Shown: piece after piece, positions 1-15,060 of the stretch
How the letters are laid out: each line of letters opens with the position of its first letter
How positions within the stretch are numbered: position 1 is the stretch's first letter
Source of the DNA: Candidatus Micrarchaeota archaeon
GTDB taxonomy: Archaea; B1Sed10-29; WALL01; WAMD01
DNA: 15,061 nucleotides
NCBI GenBank assembly: GCA_964652335.1
Contig: CAZZDL010000019.1
Location: 1-15,061 of the forward strand
Reading direction: 5' to 3'
Made by a program: the position numbers and the translations under genes
Notes under the pieces: model-generated
What the model saw: only the letters and a program-made list of their open reading frames with translations
What the model was told of the DNA's origin: nothing
Databases searched by the model: none

Positions 1-852
1 AGTAACAAGTTTGTCAGGGAATCAAAATATCCTGAAGATATCTTGGTAGAAGGAGGCTGTGAGCTGAGTAATGGCAAGATATGTGATGCTGACCAAATAG
101 TGGCCTACATAGGTTACATAATAAATGATGTTGAGAATAGTGATACACACTCTGGAGTATATGGACCGGTAGCACTAGGGAAAGAGAATCTGAATACAAA
201 AACAATCAAAGATATACTTGCGGTGCTTGGCAAAGAGATGACAGTGTGTTCGCCAAACGAAGATGCTGGGTGTGGAAAAAGAGGTGAAAGAGAGCTAATC
301 TTAAATACTACTCTATTATCGTGTGGAAATCTGTCATTCATTGCTGCACTAACACCGCAGGGAGACATAGATATCCACGTGAGCAATGAAAGTGCACCTT
401 GGTGTAATAGTCTGTCTACACAAAACGGTCTTGCCTTGCTTGGAATGCTAAACTACGATGGGTGGTCTAGATCTGAATCACTAATAACAACGAACCATTT
501 CGTGCTCAGTGGAGATGACGCAAGCGAACTAATTGAAGGGTTAGATGACCTAGGAGGAACCAAATTAGAAGATACATTTGGTTCATACTCTGGAGTTAGC
601 TCAGACGACTGGTCGGCCTTAACAACCGGGCTGAACCCTGCTTACATAATCCAATATGAGGAAACCGATAACATTTCATCATGGACATTCAAATGCGATA
701 GCACGACTGGGGATTACTTCTACATACTAGACAATGGGAATTCTGTCAGTATATATGTAAACTCCACAGCAATTGGCAGTACACAAGGGACAAATCAAGC
801 TGTGCTAACATTCTTGTACAACTGGCTAACAGGACAGGCCAGCTGCCAATAG
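1..852 (+). CDS. C-terminal part of a large acidic, Ser/Thr/Gly/Cys-rich, probably extracellular or surface protein (5'-truncated by the window)
   Basis: Frame 1 is open from base 1 (SNKFVRESKYPEDILVEGGC...) to TAG at 850-852. Scattered Cys, several N-x-S/T sequons and no TM segment in the visible part. Confidence 0.7.
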   Translation, partial: SNKFVRESKYPEDILVEGGCELSNGKICDADQIVAYIGYIINDVENSDTHSGVYGPVALGKENLNTKTIKDILAVLGKEMTVCSPNEDAGCGKRGERELILNTTLLSCGNLSFIAALTPQGDIDIHVSNESAPWCNSLSTQNGLALLGMLNYDGWSRSESLITTNHFVLSGDDASELIEGLDDLGGTKLEDTFGSYSGVSSDDWSALTTGLNPAYIIQYEETDNISSWTFKCDSTTGDYFYILDNGNSVSIYVNSTAIGSTQGTNQAVLTFLYNWLTGQASCQ

Positions 853-888: not shown

Positions 889-1320
889 ATGATGAAGGCA
901 GCGTTCCTGGACAGTCTAATCGGAAAGCTTCTTGGGCTTGGACCAATAGCTAGCTTACTGGAAAAGGTAAACCTAGTAATGCTCGGATTAAAGATTGTGG
1001 TCCTGCTTTTTGTCGTTGGATGGGTAAGGACACATGTGGGTGGAGGAAGACTAGGAACATTTGTCCTGCTATTGGTTGGTTATCTGATACTATTCCCATA
1101 CTGGTATTTATTCGGGCCGCTTGCGATATTGTACCTGCTAGCAATAACCGGAGTTACTGGGCTAGCCATGGATATCGTCTTCACTCACCAGGCATATAAT
1201 CCATTTGGCCCTGGAACGCCAACAGTAGGAGAAGAGAGAGCTGCCTATCTTAACAACCCTGCAATGGGACTTCAGTCAAAAATAACCCAAATGTTTAGAA
1301 AAAAGATTGGGGGACGATAA
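889..1320 (+). CDS. Small polytopic membrane protein, paralog family A (W-x9-[LI][GS]-x8-Y)
   Basis: 143 aa with about 3 hydrophobic segments. WVRTHVGGGRLGTFVLLLVGY aligns without gaps to the next two ORFs. Its stop abuts the next ATG. Confidence 0.85.
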   Translation: MMKAAFLDSLIGKLLGLGPIASLLEKVNLVMLGLKIVVLLFVVGWVRTHVGGGRLGTFVLLLVGYLILFPYWYLFGPLAILYLLAITGVTGLAMDIVFTHQAYNPFGPGTPTVGEERAAYLNNPAMGLQSKITQMFRKKIGGR

Positions 1321-1659
1321 ATGAACAAAGGTTTTCTTCCTGCGTCTCCATTGCTTGCTTTGATCTTGCTATTGATAACATTCGCCGTAGTTATAATAGG
1401 GCCAGCAGTAGCTGTACACATATCTCCCACAATAAGGATAATATTCCAATTCGTAATAGCAGTAACGATATACAACTGGGTAAAGAATACTGTGGGCCCA
1501 GGCATTCTGTCTCTCGTTATATCTGCTGTTCTCATATACATATTTGTCATAATGCTTCCTGGCTTCACTGCGTCGTTATGGGCGACTTACTACGTTCTTG
1601 GGCTTGGGATAGCATCAATGCTTATATGGGGATTCACACTGTTCAGTGGGAGAATGTAG
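1321..1659 (+). CDS. Small polytopic membrane protein, family A, with a class III signal-like N-terminus
   Basis: 112 aa, about 4 TM. TAA|ATG junction with GGGGGA upstream. Motif WVKNTVGPGILSLVISAVLIY. N-terminus MNKG/FLPASPLLALILLL. Confidence 0.85.
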   Translation: MNKGFLPASPLLALILLLITFAVVIIGPAVAVHISPTIRIIFQFVIAVTIYNWVKNTVGPGILSLVISAVLIYIFVIMLPGFTASLWATYYVLGLGIASMLIWGFTLFSGRM

Positions 1660-1774: not shown

Positions 1775-1999
1775 ATGGGGGACTTAATTACTGACCTTCA
1801 GATGGCTCTGATAATAATTGTATTTGTATATGTAATAGCATGGGCCACTGAACTGACAAAGTCTAAGAAAATTGGTGTTATACTAGCGCTAATAATAGTT
1901 TACCTAACAGTTTACCAGCATTTCTCGCTATTACTTATAGTGATCGTTCTATTCTTCGGATATGCATTTTGGGACAAGTTTACCGCTCAACTGGAGTGA
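1775..1999 (+). CDS. Small membrane protein, family A
   Basis: 74 aa, about 3 hydrophobic segments, SD GGTGGTGA. Motif WATELTKSKKIGVILALIIVY. Confidence 0.85.
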   Translation: MGDLITDLQMALIIIVFVYVIAWATELTKSKKIGVILALIIVYLTVYQHFSLLLIVIVLFFGYAFWDKFTAQLE

Positions 2000-2005
2000 T
2001 GCTAA

Positions 2006-2293
2006 ATGGACACAACCACACTAATGATATTCCTGCTGCTCCTGGCACTAGCAATCAGCGCAGATCAAATGTGGATAGCTATTGGAATTGCAATAGTCAT
2101 AGCTATATCTGTTAGGTCCCTCACCTTGGGAATAATAATACTTGCAGGGACGGGGTTGATGCTGTTCCTGAAATCACAGGTTGAATTCTGGTGGGTCATT
2201 TTGGGGTTGATAATGCTATTCGCATTCCTAATGAACAGAAGCGAAGGCGCAGGTCCAGAAATGTACACACCACAGATGCTATTTGGAGGATAA
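2006..2293 (+). CDS. Small membrane protein (about 4 short TM); N-terminal hairpin with a W-I-A motif like family B
   Basis: 95 aa, SD GGAG(TGA) upstream. QMWIAIGIAIVIA resembles WMWLAAIGIALLIA of the next gene. Confidence 0.85.
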   Translation: MDTTTLMIFLLLLALAISADQMWIAIGIAIVIAISVRSLTLGIIILAGTGLMLFLKSQVEFWWVILGLIMLFAFLMNRSEGAGPEMYTPQMLFGG

Positions 2294-2295
2294 AA

Positions 2296-2619
2296 ATGAT
2301 TGAATTACTCATAATAGTCGGGATGGTGATAGTCGGGATATATCTCAGATGGATGTGGCTAGCGGCTATTGGAATAGCACTGCTAATAGCGTATCTGTTC
2401 GCGGCTACAAGCAAGAAGGCTAGGGCTCCAACTGGTGGGAAAAAACCAAAAATAAGGCCTATAATCGTTAAGAGAAGATATGACGTGGAGTCAATATATC
2501 CATCAAAAATGTCAATAAGACTAAATCCACATTACTACACTGGTGCGTGGTGGGAATTCGCTCAAGAGAGGCTTGGTTTGTTCGCAGCTAGCATGATCAA
2601 TTGGTGGAGGAAGCGATAA
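2296..2619 (+). CDS. 2-TM membrane protein with conserved PxKMxxxxNP motif, family B
   Basis: Start re-called at ATG 2296 (SD GGAGG at 2285-2289) rather than 2191. 107 aa: TM hairpin, basic linker, PIIVKRRYDVESIYPSKMSIRLNPHY and an amphipathic C-terminal helix. Confidence 0.85.
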   Translation: MIELLIIVGMVIVGIYLRWMWLAAIGIALLIAYLFAATSKKARAPTGGKKPKIRPIIVKRRYDVESIYPSKMSIRLNPHYYTGAWWEFAQERLGLFAASMINWWRKR

Positions 2620-3029
2620 TGGATAAATGGGTCTCAATATTGATGTTAGGGATATTGGTGCTTTCCTTGTACAAGGGCATGACATGGCTAGCTGGAGCGA
2701 TAGGTATAGTCATTGTATTGGCATTTATTGGAGAAAGACCTAGAAAACCAGTCGCTCCTGCGGGGGGAGCCGCTCAGGCAAAAGAAGAGGAAGAAGTACT
2801 TACTCCAGTAATTGTAACAGATGCAGGAGAGCCGCCCTATCTATATCCCCCTAAAATGATAGTAAAGGTAAATCCAAAATGGGGTTCATTTAATTTCTTT
2901 GAAAATGCTGCCCTTGGTATAGCGGGATTCCTTAATTTAGTGTCAAAAACAGCCACTGGCAAGAGACTGCCTGGATATAAGTATGAAAAAAGATGGGGTG
3001 TTGATAAAATACTATCAAAGAAATCTTGA
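2619..3029 (+). CDS. 2-TM membrane protein, family B
   Basis: Start at ATG 2619 overlapping the upstream TAA (TAATG), SD GGAGG at 2606-2610. 136 aa. Motif PVIVTDAGEPPYLYPPKMIVKVNPKW. Confidence 0.85.
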   Translation: MDKWVSILMLGILVLSLYKGMTWLAGAIGIVIVLAFIGERPRKPVAPAGGAAQAKEEEEVLTPVIVTDAGEPPYLYPPKMIVKVNPKWGSFNFFENAALGIAGFLNLVSKTATGKRLPGYKYEKRWGVDKILSKKS

Positions 3030-3038
3030 GGTGGATGA

Positions 3039-3392
3039 ATGGATTTGGATGACATGGCTATAATGTTCGGGTTGCTTGTCTTGATATGGATGCTTGGATA
3101 CAGATCAATAGCCATTGTTGTATTTGTCCTTTTCATAATAGTGAGCTTCTTCGCAAGGAGACCATCGCCAGAAAGGAGAGTAGTAGAAGGTCTAAAAGTC
3201 CAGGGGGCAGAAGTATTGGAACCAATAGTAATAGAAACTGTGAGAAAGCCTCCATTTAGGATACCAAAAAAGATGGACCTTGGTGTAAATCCAACCTGGA
3301 GCTCAAAGCTCTGGAGGGAAAAGGTAGTTGCGGATGGGTTAGCTAGCATCGGTGGGGCTTTCATAAAACTGTTTGGAGGTAGAAGGAGTTGA
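3039..3392 (+). CDS. 2-TM membrane protein, family B
   Basis: 117 aa, SD GAGGTGG. Motif PIVIETVRKPPFRIPKKMDLGVNPTW. Confidence 0.85.
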   Translation: MDLDDMAIMFGLLVLIWMLGYRSIAIVVFVLFIIVSFFARRPSPERRVVEGLKVQGAEVLEPIVIETVRKPPFRIPKKMDLGVNPTWSSKLWREKVVADGLASIGGAFIKLFGGRRS

Positions 3393-3892
3393 TCTGGCAG
3401 ATATTTGGGCTTGCGTTAATAGCAATATCTGCTGTATTCGCCCAGTGGTGGCTAGCAGCATTGGGTATTGTCATTTTTATTCTCTCCTCAATACCTATCA
3501 AAAGAGTCCCGTCTGGGGCGTCAGTCAGGAAAACAAAGTTAAAACATAAATTGATCCAAGCGCCACAGGAGGCATGGGAAGGTGATGAAATGGCTACATT
3601 TATGGCAATGCAAATGGGGCCTCCAATATTCTCTGACGTAGATATGTTTTACCCTCTAGCAGAATCTGGGAAAGCATTCGGAACAAACCCATTAGCAATG
3701 GGAATAACCAGAAGAATGTTACCCTTTCCAAACTACGGCGAGTCCTCAATATTGCAGAGACTATTTGCTGGATTGATCATACCTATAGATTCTGTTCTGT
3801 TTTCAAAAACATATGGATATAAATTTGGAAATAGAAAGTTAAAAGGTAATGTAAATAATTGGGTCGTTGGCGGAGAGAACAAGATTAGGTGA
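3389..3892 (+). CDS. 2-TM membrane protein with a family-B-like N-terminal hairpin (WWLAALGI) and a divergent cytoplasmic domain
   Basis: TTG start overlapping the upstream TGA (TTGA), AGGAG just upstream. 167 aa. Confidence 0.75.
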   Translation: MIWQIFGLALIAISAVFAQWWLAALGIVIFILSSIPIKRVPSGASVRKTKLKHKLIQAPQEAWEGDEMATFMAMQMGPPIFSDVDMFYPLAESGKAFGTNPLAMGITRRMLPFPNYGESSILQRLFAGLIIPIDSVLFSKTYGYKFGNRKLKGNVNNWVVGGENKIR

Positions 3893-3898
3893 TTATGA

Positions 3899-4516
3899 AT
3901 GAGAAAGTACCTAATATCGGGATTTATTGTAATGATCTTATTCATTCTATTTGCATTTGCAGATAACGGGAATTACATCCCTGAAAAGGGTTGCTGGGTT
4001 TATCCAGACAAACTAATATGTATAAGTCAAAGCCAAGTGAATACTACTGTTTTCATAAAAAATGTGTCCTGTTATTCCACAGATGTGTATGGGACAGGAA
4101 ACCTAATCCAACTCCCGTGCATAGCTAATGGTGAAATGAGACCAACAACTGTAGAAGTATGCTATAAGCTATTACCATATGAAAATGGTAACCCAAAAAT
4201 AGAAGAATATAATCCAAGATACAACTGCAAAAACGAAACATGGGAAGGCAAAGTTCAACTCCACATCCCAAGAGAGATAATTCCGTGGGAGTGCAACGAA
4301 GAAGAAATAGATAATGTTACGACTGCTTGCTTTATAGAACCAAACGCAGACTACGTCATAAATGGCATGGGAAACGATGTAAACGGGACTAAGGTTATCT
4401 ACGTCAACAGTATTGAATCTCCAAAAATAAGGATAGATCTAATTATCGGCGGAATAATCGGGCTAGCTATTGTGATCCTCGTTTATAGAAGGACAAAGAA
4501 AAGTCAAGTTACTTAA
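3899..4516 (+). CDS. Secreted, C-terminally membrane-anchored Cys-rich surface protein
   Basis: Signal peptide MRKYLISGFIVMILFILFAFA, 8 Cys, several N-x-T/S sequons, C-terminal TM LIIGGIIGLAIVILVY followed by RRTKK. SD GGTGA. Confidence 0.8.
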   Translation: MRKYLISGFIVMILFILFAFADNGNYIPEKGCWVYPDKLICISQSQVNTTVFIKNVSCYSTDVYGTGNLIQLPCIANGEMRPTTVEVCYKLLPYENGNPKIEEYNPRYNCKNETWEGKVQLHIPREIIPWECNEEEIDNVTTACFIEPNADYVINGMGNDVNGTKVIYVNSIESPKIRIDLIIGGIIGLAIVILVYRRTKKSQVT

Positions 4517-4979
4517 CGCTCTCCCTAGCTAAAATACTCCTACTAACCTCTAATAGATCCTCCTGCAATTTCTTTATGGCCATCACTACTGGCTTTATCT
4601 CCAATAACAATTGCTTCACTTCTGCTATCTCTGCTTTAAGTTCTGCCAGATCCTCAAGTCTTGCCTCTATCTCTCCGTGTTTCTCATGAAGTAAATCTAC
4701 TTTTGTATGAAGCCTCTCAAAATGATCCTCTGTCTCTCCCAGTTTTTCAACTACTGGCTTAACAGCTTGACCAGTTTCCATAGCTTCCCTAAGAGCAGAT
4801 ACCTCTTTATGCACATCAACAGTATTGGGCATAAGTCCTGCCTCGGATATTATGAGGCTGATATCATCCTTTGCTATTCCCATTTGTTCAAGATTCTCCT
4901 TTATCTGATCAACAGCCAATCCTTGATCATGCATACTCTTGACAAGGCCAGCCAATCGTTTCAGTGTAGCTTCGTCCAT
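4509..4979 (-). CDS. Soluble protein: small N-terminal helical domain plus long coiled coil
   Basis: 156 aa, SD GAGGGAG. Heptad pattern in FERLHTKVDLLHEKHGEIEARLEDLAELKAEIAEVKQLL. Confidence 0.8.
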   Translation of the reverse strand: MDEATLKRLAGLVKSMHDQGLAVDQIKENLEQMGIAKDDISLIISEAGLMPNTVDVHKEVSALREAMETGQAVKPVVEKLGETEDHFERLHTKVDLLHEKHGEIEARLEDLAELKAEIAEVKQLLLEIKPVVMAIKKLQEDLLEVSRSILARESVK

Positions 4980-5076: not shown

Positions 5077-6531
5077 ATGTTAGACTTGCCGTATGGACCA
5101 TGGAAGCCAATACTATCTGGGAACTGGAGTGGAATAGACGTCACGTATTATGAAAATCCTGATAAGGAATTACTAATATGCATATTTGATAAAAAAGCAG
5201 AGAAGATTGCCGGATTAGTTATGCTCGTAGCCAAATTCTTCATACCACATGGGAACGCATCTGGACTTGTGGAAAAATTCCCATCTGGAAATTTGGTCCA
5301 CCTAACAAAGAAGACGCCCAATTTATTACTAGATTACATTGGCCTTGTTAGCGATCCTGTTTACGTTCAATTTGAGCCAAGGGAGATAATCATAAAATTT
5401 AACAAAATGTATAACTCTGTTCAAGAGAATGCTAGAGAATTAAGAAAACTAGCAAGGGAGCACCAGATTCCAATAATAGAACTGAAAAATGCTAATGAAG
5501 AGGTAATACACAGATTATTTGGTGAGCCTCTAGCATTACCAACATTAATAGTGAGAAAACCAGGGCAAGGAACCATGCTGGAGATAAAGCTTGGAAAGAT
5601 GAAATTAGGGTTGAAAGTCACTGGGGAGATAGCGGAGGAGCCTGTGCAAGAGCTGGCGTTTACTATAATATCTGGTGAATCTAAGAGACTGACCCATGTC
5701 GTAGTGGAGGAAGCTGTACTTAATGGAGTTACCATGATAGTATTTGACAAAACAGGCGAGTATCTAGCCATGAGAAACCCTAGCCAGAGCACAGAGGGAT
5801 ACGAAAAATTTGAAATATCTCAGCCAATGGGAATGCCAATGAGGAGAATGGAGCCTGGCGTTGACGTGTTCATTGAACCAGGATTCTTTGAGAAAAAATG
5901 TTGGACAGAATTCCTAGGGCTAGACAATGAGACTGCCACGGTAATTGGAGAAATTCTAAAAGAAAAACCAGAAACACTTGACGAAGTTCTAGAAGCAATA
6001 GAAAAAATAAAGCCAAAAAAGTTTATCCATGAAAGGCTAACCATGATGGTAAGCTTAATAAAAGAATTCTATGGAGACCTGTTCAGGGAAAAGAACGATG
6101 GAAGGGAACTAATTGCTCCATGGCTAAAGAAAATAGGTAGGATAACTTGCATAGATTTGTCTGACCTTGATGAAAGAATGGGTGGAGCAATAATGTTTTC
6201 TGTAATAAAAGCCGTCGAGCGGTTCCTAAAATCAGAAAGACCATCTAGAGAAGTTAGATCGGCCACCCTGGTAGAAGTTCCAAAGGATAAAGGCCCTGTT
6301 TTTGAGGAAATATCAAAAACAATGAAAGTTCTATCCGCAAACTATGGACACGGATTTGTGTGCAAGATAGAAAAGGAAGAATGGGTGGAAGATGATATGA
6401 TTCAAGCGGCCATGCTAAGATGTGTTGGTGTTAAGGAAGGAGAGGCCATTATAATCCCACACGGGAAAAAGCCATATAGAATACATGTGAGGCCTACCCT
6501 TTCTTCGTTTGAGAAAGCCTCTCGTCAATAG
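5077..6531 (+). CDS. HerA/FtsK/VirB4-superfamily-like protein with degenerate ATPase motifs (probable pseudo-ATPase)
   Basis: VVVEEAVLNGVTMIVFDKTGEY, ITCIDLSDL, GEAII and PYRIHVRP match the HerA/DUF87 pattern in the correct order. The Walker A, Walker B and Arg-finger positions are substituted. Confidence 0.7.
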   Translation: MLDLPYGPWKPILSGNWSGIDVTYYENPDKELLICIFDKKAEKIAGLVMLVAKFFIPHGNASGLVEKFPSGNLVHLTKKTPNLLLDYIGLVSDPVYVQFEPREIIIKFNKMYNSVQENARELRKLAREHQIPIIELKNANEEVIHRLFGEPLALPTLIVRKPGQGTMLEIKLGKMKLGLKVTGEIAEEPVQELAFTIISGESKRLTHVVVEEAVLNGVTMIVFDKTGEYLAMRNPSQSTEGYEKFEISQPMGMPMRRMEPGVDVFIEPGFFEKKCWTEFLGLDNETATVIGEILKEKPETLDEVLEAIEKIKPKKFIHERLTMMVSLIKEFYGDLFREKNDGRELIAPWLKKIGRITCIDLSDLDERMGGAIMFSVIKAVERFLKSERPSREVRSATLVEVPKDKGPVFEEISKTMKVLSANYGHGFVCKIEKEEWVEDDMIQAAMLRCVGVKEGEAIIIPHGKKPYRIHVRPTLSSFEKASRQ

Positions 6532-6937
6532 CCTCTTTTAGCTGGTTTATTGTAACTAGTTCCATTGGATTGATAGAGTCTACAACGTACTTTACCTCAT
6601 CTAGATCTGACCTAAGGTCTGCAATCTGATCCTCTATCCTATCTAACCTGGCTTTTATTTCAGATAGGTCAACCGAGCCTGTCTTGGGTAGCTTCTTTGA
6701 TATCTCTTCTATTATTTCCTCTTTGCTGAACGCTGGCCCTCCGCCCATCTCCTCCAGTTCCTTCAGCTTTTTATTATGGGAAACTACTGTCCTAGCCATT
6801 ATCTGGAGATTATTTTCTAAAACCTTAATTCTCTGGGCAAGAAGCCTAAGCTTTGAGTCTAGTATGTTTATTGTTCTAGCCACAGATACTGGCTTAGCTT
6901 GAGTCTGTCTAACTGGTCTAGTATGTCTGTCAACCAT
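6494..6937 (-). CDS. Coiled-coil protein with C-terminal P-x-E-L-V-T motif
   Basis: 147 aa, SD AGGTGG. Two heptad stretches (LDSKLRLLAQRIKVLENNL and LSEIKARLDRIEDQIADLRSDLDEV). Overlaps the convergent gene by 38 nt. Confidence 0.8.
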   Translation of the reverse strand: MVDRHTRPVRQTQAKPVSVARTINILDSKLRLLAQRIKVLENNLQIMARTVVSHNKKLKELEEMGGGPAFSKEEIIEEISKKLPKTGSVDLSEIKARLDRIEDQIADLRSDLDEVKYVVDSINPMELVTINQLKEAIDERLSQTKKG

Positions 6938-7000: not shown

Positions 7001-9343
7001 ATGGGCATTACTGGATTACTACTTGATATAGAACACGACGGAAATGAAATAAAGTTGTATGTAAAAACTAGTGACGGAGTAAAGATTGTAAAAGATAGGT
7101 ATTTCCCCTACTTCTATGCAATACCTAATGGGAAGGAAAATGAGCTCATGAAAAAGGTAAAGGGGAAAGCAAAAGATATTGAAAAGATGGAAGCTGTTGT
7201 GGATGGAGATAAGAAAACTGTCATTAAGATAGCTGTAGAGGAACCATCCAAGCTTTCTAAGGTGAGAGATCTAATAAAAGAAGAATTTGAAACGAGAGAA
7301 TATGATTTTAGCTTGACAGAAAGGTACATGATAGACAAGGGAATAACTCCAATGCGTGTTTATGAGATAAAGGGAGAAAAGGATTTGAAGTTTAAGGAAA
7401 TAGACAAGATAATTAAGATAGATGCTTTGGCATTTGATATTGAGACATACAACCCAAAAGGCATGCCAAATCCAAAGGAAGATCCCGTTATAATGGTATC
7501 CTATGCTAGTAAAAAAGAGAAGGGAGTACTAACATGGAAGAAGATAAATGCTGATTTCGTTGAGTATCTGGAAAATGAAGAAGAATGCTTGTCAAAACTT
7601 GAGGATATATCTCAAAGATACGATGTGATATACACATACAACGGAGACAATTTTGATATCCCCTACATAAAAGAGAGAAGAGGGAAACTCAGACTAGGAT
7701 TTGAAAAAGAGAATGTAAAGCTTAGAAAGAGTAAACAAGGCCATTTCGCAGAAATACCTGGAAGGCCACATGTGGACGTATTCAGATGCGTTAGTTTTCT
7801 TGAAGGGATAGGTGCAATAAGAATACTAAGATACACTCTAGAAGATGTGTACAAGGCCGTGCTCGGAAAGGAAAAGATAGATGTTAACACTAGAGAATTA
7901 TGGAAAACTTGGGATAATGAAAAGGAAGACCAGATGGCTGAACTGGCTATGTATTCCCTACAAGATTCCATAGCTACGTATGAACTTGGTGAGTATGTAT
8001 TGCCCTTGTTTATTGAGTTAGCGAAACTAACAGGAAAAACATTGTATCATGCAGTAAGAATATCCGCGAGCCATGTTGTTGAATCTGTTTTGATAAGGGA
8101 AGCACACAAAAGGAAAGAAATTGTTCCAAAAAAACCGAACGAAGAGGAAGTGATGCGGAGAATAAGGCAAACCATAAAGGGAGCTTATGTAAAGGAACCT
8201 GTTCCTGGATTACACGAGAACATTGCTGTCTTGGACTTCAGATCATTGTACCCAAGCATAATAATAGCTCATAATGTTGATCCATTCACTCTAGACAAAG
8301 AGAAAAAATGCAAAGACTACTACGAATCCCCAAACGGATACAGATTTTGCAAAGATAGAATAGGATTAATTCCAGCTGTTTTGAAGAATTTGGTCACCAT
8401 GAGGGCAAAGGTCAAAAAGGAAATGAAAAAATACAAGAGGGATAGTCTGGAATACAAAATATTAAATGCCAGACAACAGAGTCTAAAGATAGCCGCCAAT
8501 GCAACCTACGGTTATCTGAATTTCGCAAGAGCTAGATGGTATTCAAAGGAATGTGCTGAAGCCATAACTGCCTGGGGAAGATACTATGTTAGAAAGCTTA
8601 TAGATGAAGCAGAAAAGGCAGGATTTGAGGTTATATACGCAGACACAGATTCCGCCTTCATAAAACTTGGAAACAAGAAAAAGAAGGATATACTAGATTT
8701 CCTGGATAAGTTCAACTCTAAACTTCCAGAATTCATGGAGCTTGAATTGGAAGGATTCTACAAGAGAGGGATATTCGTAACCAGGAAGATGGGTAGGGGA
8801 GCAGCAAAGAAAAGATACGCATTATTATCAGAGACAGGGGAAATGAAGATAACTGGTCTTGAGTTCGTTAGGACAGACTGGTCAGAAATAGCGAAGGAGG
8901 TACAAAGGGATGTATTAAGGCTCGTCTTGGAAGGAAAAGTAGAAGAAGCAAAAGAAAAAGTCAGAAAGACAATTGACATGATAAGGAAAGGTGAAATCCC
9001 ATTGGAGAAATACGTTATATATACACAGCTGAAACAGAATATTGCTCAGTATGAAGCAATTGGTCCGCATGTCAGGGCGGCCAAGCGGTTGTTGGAAGCT
9101 GGCCATGCCATATTTCCAGGAATGCTCATAGGATACATAGTAACCAAAGGTGGGGGGAATATAGGGGATAGATCATATCCCTTCTATCCAGTGAACCTGC
9201 TTGGAAGCAGAAGGCCTGATCCAGATTATTATATAAATAACCAGCTATTGCCGGCCGTCACAAAGATACTGGCAGAGATAGGGATAAAGAAAGATGATCT
9301 CAAGTTCGGTGGAAAACAATCCAAGCTAGGAAAATGGTTCTAG
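7001..9343 (+). CDS. polB: Family B DNA polymerase with 3'-5' exonuclease, no intein
   Basis: ExoI FDIETY, ExoII YNGDNFD, ExoIII YSLQD, motif A DFRSLYPSII, motif B KIAANATYGY, motif C YADTDS, and C-terminal PIP box QSKLGKWF. Confidence 0.98.
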   Translation: MGITGLLLDIEHDGNEIKLYVKTSDGVKIVKDRYFPYFYAIPNGKENELMKKVKGKAKDIEKMEAVVDGDKKTVIKIAVEEPSKLSKVRDLIKEEFETREYDFSLTERYMIDKGITPMRVYEIKGEKDLKFKEIDKIIKIDALAFDIETYNPKGMPNPKEDPVIMVSYASKKEKGVLTWKKINADFVEYLENEEECLSKLEDISQRYDVIYTYNGDNFDIPYIKERRGKLRLGFEKENVKLRKSKQGHFAEIPGRPHVDVFRCVSFLEGIGAIRILRYTLEDVYKAVLGKEKIDVNTRELWKTWDNEKEDQMAELAMYSLQDSIATYELGEYVLPLFIELAKLTGKTLYHAVRISASHVVESVLIREAHKRKEIVPKKPNEEEVMRRIRQTIKGAYVKEPVPGLHENIAVLDFRSLYPSIIIAHNVDPFTLDKEKKCKDYYESPNGYRFCKDRIGLIPAVLKNLVTMRAKVKKEMKKYKRDSLEYKILNARQQSLKIAANATYGYLNFARARWYSKECAEAITAWGRYYVRKLIDEAEKAGFEVIYADTDSAFIKLGNKKKKDILDFLDKFNSKLPEFMELELEGFYKRGIFVTRKMGRGAAKKRYALLSETGEMKITGLEFVRTDWSEIAKEVQRDVLRLVLEGKVEEAKEKVRKTIDMIRKGEIPLEKYVIYTQLKQNIAQYEAIGPHVRAAKRLLEAGHAIFPGMLIGYIVTKGGGNIGDRSYPFYPVNLLGSRRPDPDYYINNQLLPAVTKILAEIGIKKDDLKFGGKQSKLGKWF

Positions 9344-9610: not shown

Positions 9611-10603
9611 TTATTTCATAAGCTTCACTTTTAGTTTTGAACTGAATGCCAAAGCTAGGAACTCAAGTTCACCTCTTAATGGGTGGTTCGATGGTATTTT
9701 ATTAAGTGCCTCTTTAATGGTTTTGACGGCCTCTTCATATTTATTCATCTCTGAAAAGGCAATGGCCTTATTGACCCAAGCTTGTGCTAGATGTGGATTT
9801 ATTTTTAATGCTTTGTCGTAATGTCTAATAGCCTCTTCGTACTTGCCTGTCTCAGAAAGAGTATTTGCTTTGTTATTCCATGCCTCTGCTAGGTTTGGAT
9901 TTATTTTTAATGCTTTGTCGTAATGTTTTAGGGCTTCTTCGTATCTACCCATCTCAGAAAGTGTGTTAGCCTTGTTATTCCACGCATCTGCAAGATTTGG
10001 ATTTATCTTTAATGCAATATCATGAGCAGTCAATGCCTTTTCTAATTTTCCAATTTCCCTTAAAAAATTTCCATGATTTGTCCATATATATGCTGCAAGC
10101 TCTTCCCTTGTTTGCGGCTTTCCCTTATGATGAGTATACGACTTATCAAACGCAGGATCGTGCTGTTTTCCATCAATAACAACATATGCATGACCATCTA
10201 TTCCCTCAACGACATGATACTTAACATCAAATCCCATCTCTCTTGCCATTTCACCCAATGCAGCTGACATTGCTAGGCAGTCAGCATAGTGTTTACAAAG
10301 AAATCCAGATAATGTTTTCCTTGGTGAAAGCTGTATGCCATATGAGCCGAAAATTAGTTCAATTGCAGTTGAACCGTATTCATGCACAAATTCCCTCATG
10401 TGTTCTATCAGCTCTTTGTCAGAGATCTTTTTGTTTTTCCTCATCCATTTCCCAAGCTCTCCCTCTTTTATATCCTTTGGCAATTCTGGAAACCATCCCT
10501 TCTTTCTGCCATAGTCGTAGAATTTCCTGAGAAACTTTCTTGTTGTACTCGGGGGCATTGCTGCGTCAATAAGCTCCTTCTTTGACTTTTTTCTAAACGG
10601 CAT
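9611..10603 (-). CDS. Transglutaminase-like (Cys-His-Asp) domain fused to TPR repeats
   Basis: ADCLAMSAALGEMAREMGF...GHAYVVIDGKQHDPAF, then about 4 TPRs (ALKINPNLADAWNNKANTLSEMGRYEEALKHYDK). Start re-called at ATG 10603 to avoid overlap with the divergent gene. Confidence 0.85.
   Translation of the reverse strand: MPFRKKSKKELIDAAMPPSTTRKFLRKFYDYGRKKGWFPELPKDIKEGELGKWMRKNKKISDKELIEHMREFVHEYGSTAIELIFGSYGIQLSPRKTLSGFLCKHYADCLAMSAALGEMAREMGFDVKYHVVEGIDGHAYVVIDGKQHDPAFDKSYTHHKGKPQTREELAAYIWTNHGNFLREIGKLEKALTAHDIALKINPNLADAWNNKANTLSEMGRYEEALKHYDKALKINPNLAEAWNNKANTLSETGKYEEAIRHYDKALKINPHLAQAWVNKAIAFSEMNKYEEAVKTIKEALNKIPSNHPLRGELEFLALAFSSKLKVKLMK
9794..10015 (-). repeat. 102-bp periodic repeat encoding TPR units
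   Basis: The identical 31-mer TGGATTTATTTTTAATGCTTTGTCGTAATGT occurs at 9794 and 9896, with a third partial copy at 9998. Confidence 0.9.
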
Positions 10604-10672
10604 AGTAATATTACTGCAAAAGTCATTAATAATTGGGAAATACTTTTTAATTACCAATAGTAAAACTTTTGC

Positions 10673-11545
10673 ATGCATAAGAACATAGCATTCTTAGGAG
10701 AGACATCTGGGCTGGACCTAGGAAAGAAAGCTGGTGAAACAGACATTAGCTATTTTTCTAGGATAGACTCTAGAGATATAATTAGTATATTCTCACCAAA
10801 GACATACCCTGAAAAGATACAAAGCTTGCTAGTGGCTGTTGGTTTAGCAGACCTAGTAGTGCTACGCGTGACAGAACTAGACTGGAAACTTGGTGAGGAG
10901 ATAGTAGTAAGTAATCTACTGGAAAAGCCAGGGATCATTTTAGCAGAGGAATGGGTATATGAACAAGTGAAACCTCTTCTAACTAGAACTAACCTAGAGA
11001 ATTGGAAGTATGCTAAGGATGAAAAAGAGGTGTGGGAGTTCATTAGAAAATGGAAGCCTCAGGCCAGAGATGGAAAAGAAATCTGGATAGACCAAGCATT
11101 CAAGGTAAAAAGCGTAGGGACTGTTGTCTTAGGAGTGGTGAAGGCTGGAGACGTGACAGTGCATGAGAAGCTTGTAGCTTGGCCGTCTGGGAAAGAAGCA
11201 GAGATCAAAAGTATACAAATGCAAGACAAGCCGTACGAAAAAGCAGGAACAAATGCTAGAGTGGGGTTAGCGTTAAAGGGAATAGAACCAGAGGATCTTC
11301 CAAGGGGAACTATAATCGGGAATGCAGAGGTTGTAACTGAGATACCAAGTTGGGAGAAATTGAATTTGTACAAGGGAGACGAAAAGAACATAACACATAT
11401 ATTCAATGGAATAAGTTTTGTTGGAACTAGCAATAACAAGTTAGTGAGAGAAATAGCTGTTGGTTTCTCCAAAAGGTTTTTACTGGTAGAAAACACAAAT
11501 AGGAAAGGATTAAGAATTGCTGGATTCGGTGACTTCAATGTCTGA
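10673..11545 (+). CDS. Archaeal SelB-like translation factor homolog (aSelBL) with degenerate GTPase domain
   Basis: LGKKAGETDI...YPEKIQSL N-terminal pattern. EF-Tu domain II IDQAFKVKSVGTVVLG...EIKSIQM...ARVGLALKG. No GxxxxGK[ST] P-loop. Confidence 0.8.
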   Translation: MHKNIAFLGETSGLDLGKKAGETDISYFSRIDSRDIISIFSPKTYPEKIQSLLVAVGLADLVVLRVTELDWKLGEEIVVSNLLEKPGIILAEEWVYEQVKPLLTRTNLENWKYAKDEKEVWEFIRKWKPQARDGKEIWIDQAFKVKSVGTVVLGVVKAGDVTVHEKLVAWPSGKEAEIKSIQMQDKPYEKAGTNARVGLALKGIEPEDLPRGTIIGNAEVVTEIPSWEKLNLYKGDEKNITHIFNGISFVGTSNNKLVREIAVGFSKRFLLVENTNRKGLRIAGFGDFNV

Positions 11546-13354: not shown

Positions 13355-13367
13355 TGGCGTTGTAGTA

Positions 13368-13442
13368 TGAGCCCGGGGGGATTTGAACCCCCGACCTGCC
13401 GGTCCGAAGCCGGCCGCTCTATCCTAGCTGAGCTACGGGCCC
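13368..13442 (-). tRNA. tRNA-Arg(UCG), no intron, no encoded CCA
   Basis: Reverse complement GGGCCCG TAGCTCAGCTAGGATAGAGCG GCCGG CTTCGGA CCGGC AGGTC GGGGG TTCAAAT CCCCC CGGGCTC A forms a full cloverleaf. Confidence 0.97.
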
Positions 13443-13500
13443 ATAGAGCCGATAGTCGGTTCGCGGACGTGCCGACATAGGTGGCACAAGGCTACCTACT

Positions 13501-14987: not shown

Positions 14988-15060
14988 AGCCCCGTGGTGT
15001 AGTGGCCAAGCATGCAGGGCTTTGGACCCTGCGACGGCGGTTCGAATCCGCCCGGGGCTA
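14988..15060 (+). tRNA. tRNA-Gln(UUG), A1-U72, no intron, no encoded CCA
   Basis: AGCCCCG...CAGGG CTTTGGA CCCTG CGAC GGCGG TTCGAAT CCGCC CGGGGCT A. The A1-U72 pair is typical of archaeal tRNA-Gln. Confidence 0.97.

Follow-up and report, generated by a model that had tools for sequence, protein, structure and literature searches.

Large envelope assemblies have been imaged by cryo-tomography in DPANN archaea, a barrel under the S-layer of ARM-1 (PMC11329633) and the attachment organelle of YN1, the proteins of which were stated by its authors to be unknown (PMC11420986). At the level of genes, a related system described in these lineages is the nanohaloarchaeal SPEARE/VirB4-TraG locus, in which giant, membrane-anchored Ig-like proteins are encoded beside a gene of the VirB4/HerA superfamily and for which a host-contact role was proposed (PMC10266531). 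Ced and Ted, the DNA import systems of Thermoproteota, are chromosomal loci of small membrane proteins with a HerA/VirB4-superfamily gene, and the main text on them makes no mention of DPANN (PMC9905601). The small VirB3/PrgI/TcpE proteins are a further point of comparison; VirB3 is described as having short cytoplasmic extensions at both ends and a gene directly beside virB4 (PMC12857230). Finally, the HerA helicase is encoded in the herA-nurA-mre11-rad50 operon.

The locus described here lies in a stretch of 15,061 nucleotides, designated the window (Table 1). In the window's own phylum, the gene order is giant protein(s), m1, m2, m3, m4, A, B, C, D, cc1 (reverse strand), HerA*, cc2 (reverse strand) and PolB. 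This conserved block of about a dozen genes probably builds a cell-envelope machine of DPANN archaea. The reading favored here, to which a probability of roughly 45% is assigned, is that A, B and C serve as structural components of the base, on the cytoplasmic side, of a hitherto undescribed DPANN envelope machine. That the three proteins are structural subunits of one membrane complex is considered highly likely, and that the motif they share forms an intersubunit β structure is, on balance, probable. The lineage and the neighboring genes suggest, tentatively, a role in host contact.

Table 1. Position, strand and character of the features of the locus in the window
Feature	Position	Strand	Description
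C-terminal end of a giant-clustering gene	1..852	+	Groups by BLAST (cluster cl3) with related loci's giants; cut by contig end
m1	889..1320	+	Small multi-TM protein, paralog of m2 and m3
m2	1321..1659	+	Small multi-TM protein
m3	1775..1999	+	74-aa TM protein, conserved W...YLT motif
m4	2006..2293	+	Small multi-TM protein, Tyr-x-Pro tail
Paralog A	2296..2619	+	107 aa; hairpin of TM helices, basic linker, motif of two strands (the first basic), helix at the C-terminus
33-aa motif of A	2458..2556	+	
Paralog B	2619..3029	+	136 aa; build as in A and C; first strand acidic
33-aa motif of B	2805..2903	+	
Paralog C	3039..3392	+	117 aa; build as in A and B; first strand near-neutral
33-aa motif of C	3222..3320	+	
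D	3389..3892	+	TM hairpin plus soluble tail
Cys-rich protein	3899..4516	+	N-terminal signal-like stretch, C-terminal TM (read from sequence)
cc1	4509..4979	-	Small helical N-domain plus coiled coil
HerA*	5077..6531	+	HerA/DUF87-fold protein without Walker A or B motifs
cc2	6494..6937	-	Coiled-coil protein, conserved INP motif
Family B DNA polymerase (PolB)	7001..9343	+	Conserved downstream neighbor

The three tandem open reading frames reported in the initial annotation were real, with a Shine-Dalgarno-like GGAGG/GAGGTG-type sequence before each and the start of B overlapping the stop codon of A by one base, and their 33-mers had the quoted sequences, with first nucleotides precisely at 2458, 2805 and 3222. 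The gap-free alignment of these 33-mers withstood a shuffling test. With the TM parts (the hydrophobic N-termini) removed, the best gap-free 33-column match among A, B and C scored 160, while shuffled sequences had a mean of 8.7 and a maximum of 65, and none of 2,000 shuffles reached 160. A relaxed form of the motif pattern matched only A, B and C among the 7,654 six-frame ORFs of the genome. The very low identity that had been reported outside the motif was not borne out, since the whole-protein identities, 32/101, 26/102 and 35/115 (25-32%), were about the same as those of the motif itself, 10, 9 and 12 of 33 residues (27-36%). Because of this agreement, and because the profiles of A and C align over 105 columns (hhalign, 98%), A, B and C are regarded as full-length paralogs.

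A profile of 43 members, searched against 1.84 billion proteins, retrieved 140 representatives at E<=0.001, 100 of them at E<=1e-10; two of the 140, P0108 and P0115, were repeat proteins and were dropped as false. The motif as first written, with PxKM and NP as its fixed points, proved too narrow, as the full expression was found in 5 of 139 family proteins, PxKM in 40 and PxKMxxxxNP in 7, while P-x-x-hydrophobic-x-hydrophobic was present in 116. One of the outcomes that the initial annotation had named as refuting it, homologs that do not conserve PxKM/NP, was half observed, in that only the prolines and the hydrophobic pattern are kept. In an alignment of 87 rows, the first and the second proline were each present in 83, the later Pro, Trp and Glu in 53, 39 and 52, respectively, and a Gly in the C-terminal helix, 40 positions on, in 72. 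As judged from these sequences, the family core is P-hydrophobic-x-hydrophobic, a loop, and P-x-x-hydrophobic-x-hydrophobic-x-hydrophobic; the NPxW of the window is a local version of [KRN]PxW, found in distant members too. The absence of gaps held within the window trio and not beyond it, since most A orthologs have one extra loop residue and the distant members a shorter loop.

The motif had gone unrecognized, and it remained without a match in Pfam, NCBIfam, PHROG or the PDB. None of the 43 family members had a Pfam match, and the best hit of the 87-row profile among PDB sequences was ribosomal uL16 at E 0.047, taken as chance. With no family of these four collections matched, the family counts as new. 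The soluble parts alone of A, B, C and the distant group matched each other with hhalign scores of 50-61, the maximum for shuffled columns being 18. The invariant residues differ from paralog to paralog, PI.V.R...SIYP in A and PV..D.G..P.LYP in B, as does the charge of the first strand. The mean net charge of motif positions 1-9 was +2.4 in A (range 0 to 4) and -2.55 in B (-4 to -2), with +0.3 in C and -0.4 in the distant members. D, judged by sequence, is possibly a diverged fourth paralog; its similarity to A/B/C in the window's own phylum covers about 43 columns only. That it is a fourth motif-bearing paralog was not supported, its soluble part scoring 6.6-13.1, inside the shuffle range.

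The architecture proposed for each protein, a TM hairpin and a C-terminal amphipathic helix, was reproduced in an AF2 model of B based on the 87-row alignment (mean pLDDT 81.6, pTM 0.44), which had helices at residues 3-19 and 22-38, 17 residues each, and 93-113. The amphipathic character of the last helix was not significant in the window trio alone (p 0.36, 0.13 and 0.25) and became apparent across the family, where 79 of 87 helices exceeded the mean of their shuffled versions and 48 of 87 reached p<0.05, with a mean moment of 0.48 versus 0.29. The hydrophobic span of the hairpin was 28-42 in the family, with a mean of 37. Lys and Arg averaged 3.1 in the 15 residues after the hairpin versus 0.25 before it, an excess which, by the positive-inside rule, would place the tail in the cytoplasm; in A, B and C the tails extend 71-98 aa past the hairpin. 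In keeping with the suggestion that the two strands are too small to fold alone, residues 39-85 of the B monomer model had neither helix nor sheet (block pLDDT 67-84), and since the strands are predicted to be without a partner in the monomer, they would pair with those of neighboring subunits. Prediction of an A+C+B complex scored 0.01 against a mark of 0.32, and the controls likewise did not fold, so that the result was counted neither way. Foldseek with the B model gave one row (E 4.2), a fold search with the same model, informative for residues 1-48 alone, gave generic hairpin matches only (Z<=6.2), and an Atlas search with B returned nothing above 0.75 or TM 0.40.

Reticulon and REEP proteins also combine a short hairpin with an amphipathic helix, and they shape membranes. 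The likeness of A/B/C to them is one of anatomy only. It allows a different reading, in which the hairpin and amphipathic helix act as wedges that curve the membrane for budding, tubes or division, and HerA* and the coiled coils link this activity to chromosome handling next to PolB. The hairpin helices of about 17 residues each are suitably short, the amphipathic helix is family-wide, hairpin and helix are kept in all four phyla that have the locus, PolB follows the locus in 20/25 loci of the window's phylum and 16/18 of another (G051), and membrane tubes between Micrarchaeota cells have been reported (PMC11329633). However, no homology to any such family was found, with 43 members searched against Pfam, the giant surface proteins and the m1-m3 trio are left unexplained, and most of the genomes sampled from one of the phyla (designated G374) gave no sign of the system, which is unlike an essential division machine. 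This reading is considered very unlikely. PolB itself is probably not part of the machine proper, and the conservation of gene linkage beside it could in part reflect slow rearrangement, a point against the favored reading.

To return to A, B and C as structural subunits, the history of the trio was traced in 25 loci from 24 genomes of the window's own phylum. A, B and C were in order in 23 of the 25; one was inverted and one was cut by the contig end. m2, m3 and m4 were present in 25/25, cc1 in 23, HerA* in 22 and PolB in 20, and a Cys-rich gene in the position it has in the window was found mainly in loci with the window's order. A tree of 101 locus-derived rows and 124 columns, labeled by best profile and with one duplicate locus left out, recovered clades of 25 rows for A (support 98/83), 25 for B (99/94) and 24 for C (99/92). 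Since each paralog occupies one side of a branch, the triplication predates the radiation of the class. The family was found in 28 of the 31 genomes of the phylum, all of one class, including 11/11 near-complete genomes, and 26 of the 28 positive genomes had at least three family matches. The NCBI labels of named relatives are Iainarchaeum, Diapherotrites or Micrarchaeota archaea, and the phylum is one that we take to be GTDB phylum B1Sed10-29. B1Sed10-29 has been grouped with Iainarchaeota and described as without free-living-associated genes (PMC12892359).

Outside this phylum, 3 of 370 genomes in a domain-wide sample matched the family, all in phyla G374 and G284. Of 301 genomes sampled from the G374 phylum, 33 carried distant members (1-3 copies), with about ten of these matched in the TM part only; in the 61-genome G284 phylum, distant members were present in 8/8 genomes of one family, one hit being weak. 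The distant profile matched none of ten further archaeal genomes. The G374 phylum is probably Micrarchaeota, from the NCBI label of one distant member. The copies in G374 and G284 group apart from A, B and C, and a strict heterotrimer, one of the assemblies first proposed, is thus not the general rule, since these relatives carry 1-3 copies outside the A, B and C clades. In the G374 phylum, the family and HerA* were both found in families f134, f140, f144, f146 and f147 and neither was found in f40, f116, f51 and f22; kin are not independent, so that such co-occurrence counts overstate the association. The four families of this phylum with the most genomes sampled did not yield the locus. Where it is present, its genes are frequently separated, and a giant gene was seen in just 5 of the 21 loci, each no longer than 20 kb.

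A fourth phylum, G051, is probably Iainarchaeota, as we infer. Among 18 of its loci fetched around HerA*, cc1 and m3 were present in 18/18, m1, m2 and m4 in 15 and PolB in 16. The gene that follows m4 in this phylum encodes a hairpin and, at the C-terminus, a helix that looks amphipathic; it lacks the two strands, which some G374-phylum relatives have also lost. The locus is thus found in four archaeal phyla and the motif in three of them, and the retention of the locus without the two strands in the G051 phylum argues that the motif is not essential to the system.

Several side observations were made on individual loci. m1-m3 (889-1999) form a second paralog trio (hhalign 97-98%), kept even where the A/B/C motif is absent; they had no Pfam match, and their profiles gave no PDB match below E 1. 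In one family, a small gene that by eye is ribbon-helix-helix regulator-like lies between m4 and A (L035:9408-9581 and L036:10195-10359). In L029 (G018:C3), an inversion with inserted genes breaks the trio, leaving A on one strand and B and C on the other. Genome G019 has two locus copies, on C1 and C8, with identical match scores, probably an assembly duplicate, and genome G027 has two different copies, on C7 and C12. PolB reaches 1,175 aa in one relative, and another relative has it divided into two pieces (L028:634-4158, L036:2053-6029), which suggests inteins or an insertion.

HerA*, from its sequence, is a predicted pseudo-ATPase. It matched DUF87 over the cut-off (6e-7), and Atlas structure rows for HerA_C (TM 0.55-0.60) placed the HerA fold over residues 170-484, the C-terminal 315 residues; a single-sequence AF2 model was too poor to use (pLDDT 36). 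This portion has the fold of the HerA helicase. Unlike the helicase, HerA* lacks Walker A and B and has an extra, β-rich N-domain of about 170 residues, and none of the repair genes of the helicase operon was recognized in the window. Walker A (GxxGxGK[ST]) was missing at the expected site in 52/52 HerA* orthologs and Walker B (hhhhDE) was degenerate, while an intact HerA used as a control (L244) showed both motifs at those columns. Full-length orthologs (E<1e-49) were found in 22 of 370 outside genomes, 19 in the G051 phylum and the rest in G284, G360 and G374, and HerA* was present in 17 of 151 G374-phylum genomes; weaker matches, one of which was checked, look like ordinary HerA. That four phyla have retained a HerA-fold protein with no catalytic motifs is in itself unusual. 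The window's genome (G000) also encodes an intact 784-aa DUF87/HerA-like ATPase with a winged-helix match (L256, C7:14400-16844); apart from this gene and HerA*, no DUF87 gene passed the cut-off. A role for it as a universal motor was not supported, as a single-protein query found it in 0/151 G374-phylum genomes at E<=1e-30.

These features bear on a further possibility, by analogy with known secretion systems, that the locus represents a Ced/Ted-like T4SS of the conjugation type, now domesticated and degenerate, in which A/B/C would be VirB3-like anchors for a VirB4-derived protein, m1-m3 would be VirB2/CedA1-like pilins, and DNA or protein would be moved between cells with power from an ATPase encoded elsewhere. 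A/B/C fit the published description of VirB3/PrgI/TcpE in size (10-15 kDa), two TM helices, a C-terminal helix and proximity to a HerA/VirB4-superfamily gene (PMC12857230), HerA* is a member of the superfamily to which VirB4 and VirD4 also belong, and giant Ig-like proteins with VirB4/TraG-like ATPases have been proposed as a secretion system in nanohaloarchaea (PMC10266531). Moreover, the parts of Ced and Ted are without recognizable sequence similarity even to each other (PMC9905601), so that profile misses are weak evidence. Other observations count against a T4SS: 1) of the three parts common to Ced and Ted (PMC9905601), two, an active VirB4 and a channel like VirB6/CedA, are absent from the locus, where the ATPase-like protein has lost Walker A in all 52 orthologs, the largest membrane ORFs are 74-205 aa and no gene has 6-7 TM helices, although m1-m4 could form a split channel, 2) the genome, 96.8% complete, had no match to P-loop_TraG (PF19044), TrbL/VirB6 (PF04610) or VirB3 and none over the cut-off to T4SS_pilin or PrgI, a PF18895 (pilin) match being under the cut-off and outside this locus, and A/B/C matched neither PF05101 nor PF12666, 3) the tails of 70-100 aa, with their two-strand motif, are not the short extensions of VirB3, and three genes, D, the Cys-rich gene and the reverse-strand cc1, separate C from HerA*, whereas virB3 adjoins virB4 (PMC12857230), 4) the genome's intact DUF87 ATPase was found in none of 151 G374-phylum genomes (E<=1e-30), 17 of which have HerA*, and 5) the m1-m3 profiles matched no PDB pilin, although m1-m3 may nonetheless be pilin-like. 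Three fixed paralogs and an ATPase-like gene without Walker motifs are also unlike VirB3 systems, as the dead ATPase, giant Ig-like proteins and coiled coils are unlike Ced and Ted. A T4SS of this kind is judged unlikely.

The nanohaloarchaeal locus shares the giant surface proteins and differs in the ATPase. The giants of related loci are 1,800-2,900 aa, with CarboxypepD_reg/Ig-like domains in 6/6 scanned and Big_1 in 2, and no P-loop family was found in the 6 giants scanned, one of which was cut by a contig end. In contrast, the nanohaloarchaeal giant has a well-conserved ATPase domain fused to it, and a second ATPase comes next (PMC10266531). Here the ATPase-like protein is a degenerate one encoded on its own, with eight small membrane genes between the giants and HerA*. 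As side observations on the giants, the window's genome has at least five pieces of giant surface-protein genes (G000 C22:1-5538, C25:3-6833, C41 and C45), the three that include the N-terminus share an N-terminal signature before a TM anchor, and related loci have short genes of 129-134 aa that hold only the giants' N-terminus.

In the mechanism that is proposed, a short helical hairpin would anchor each subunit with its tail in the cytoplasm, and the proline-led strands would pair with those of neighboring subunits in an intersubunit sheet or ring under the membrane, while the amphipathic helices rest on the inner leaflet. Opposite charges of the first strands, basic in A and acidic in B, may fix the A-B-C register, replacing the homo-oligomer of single-copy relatives. 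The resulting A/B/C collar would encircle a membrane core of m1-m4 and, together with the two coiled coils, hold HerA* as a non-catalytic scaffold beneath the giant Ig-like surface proteins. In a host-dependent lineage the most likely use would be attachment to, or exchange with, another cell. The ancient, retained trio, its fixed order and the basic A and acidic B strands fit a hetero-oligomer, and the co-assembly first suggested for the motif is plausible and indirectly supported.

The same strands could be put to another use. The charge pattern could instead serve to bind a third protein, and in a fuller version of this idea the motif is a linear docking peptide that adds strands to the sheet of a soluble partner, the β-rich N-domain of HerA* or a coiled-coil protein, and tethers that partner to the membrane, with A, B and C differing in their sites or partners. 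An extended, proline-bounded stretch with paralog-specific invariant residues is typical of linear motifs, and the family co-occurs with HerA*. However, HerA*, cc1 and cc2 are retained in the phylum whose corresponding gene has no motif, and opposite charges of A and B in the same columns are explained more simply by mutual pairing. A docking peptide is considered unlikely. As for the role of an A/B/C-based machine, the genome carries separate type IV pilus ATPases, which could do the host-contact job instead.

The widest interpretation, put forward with somewhat less confidence than the favored reading, is that the locus is a new kind of archaeal envelope machine, inherited from an ancestor of at least four DPANN phyla, in which two paralog trios as the membrane core, a β-strand collar, a dead HerA ring scaffold and giant Ig-like proteins together make up the symbiont's host-contact or transfer organelle. 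If this were true, the locus would supply candidate genes for contact structures that until now have been observed by cryo-tomography alone. In any case, it gives a defined parts list of about a dozen conserved genes, mostly small enough to co-express, in reduced-genome lineages, and the family is a clean case of a single-copy membrane subunit that became a fixed, charge-differentiated trio. The parts list is counted as new because the locus lacks parts by which the nearest known systems are recognized; the function we infer, and the locus may have descended from a T4SS. Searches of the accessible literature found no description of the locus, nor was it described in the available text of PMC8204110, PMC9258230, PMC4858521, PMC11329633 or PMC11420986, although these families may figure as hypothetical proteins in the tables of protein families of PMC8204110.

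The remaining observations concern the rest of the genome and of the window. In several relatives (loci L150, L155, L157 and L159), genes for a pilus ATPase (about 760 aa), a T2SSF-type platform protein (680 aa), an archaeosortase and a pilin-like protein lie upstream of the giants and count in favor of the envelope reading; in the window's genome the corresponding genes are on C2 and C22. A cc1-like protein (E 4e-10) is encoded outside the locus at C7:23439-24149 of the same genome. Downstream of PolB in the window, a TPR protein at 9611-10678 (reverse strand) matched TPR families only, and by eye its N-terminal half has a Cys/His/Asp pattern that is transglutaminase-fold-like. The gene at 10673-11545 matched EF-Tu domain 2, without a G-domain match or a visible P-loop. 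Two tRNA genes were located, tRNA-Arg(TCG) at 13367-13443 on the reverse strand and tRNA-Gln(TTG) at 14988-15060 on the forward strand.
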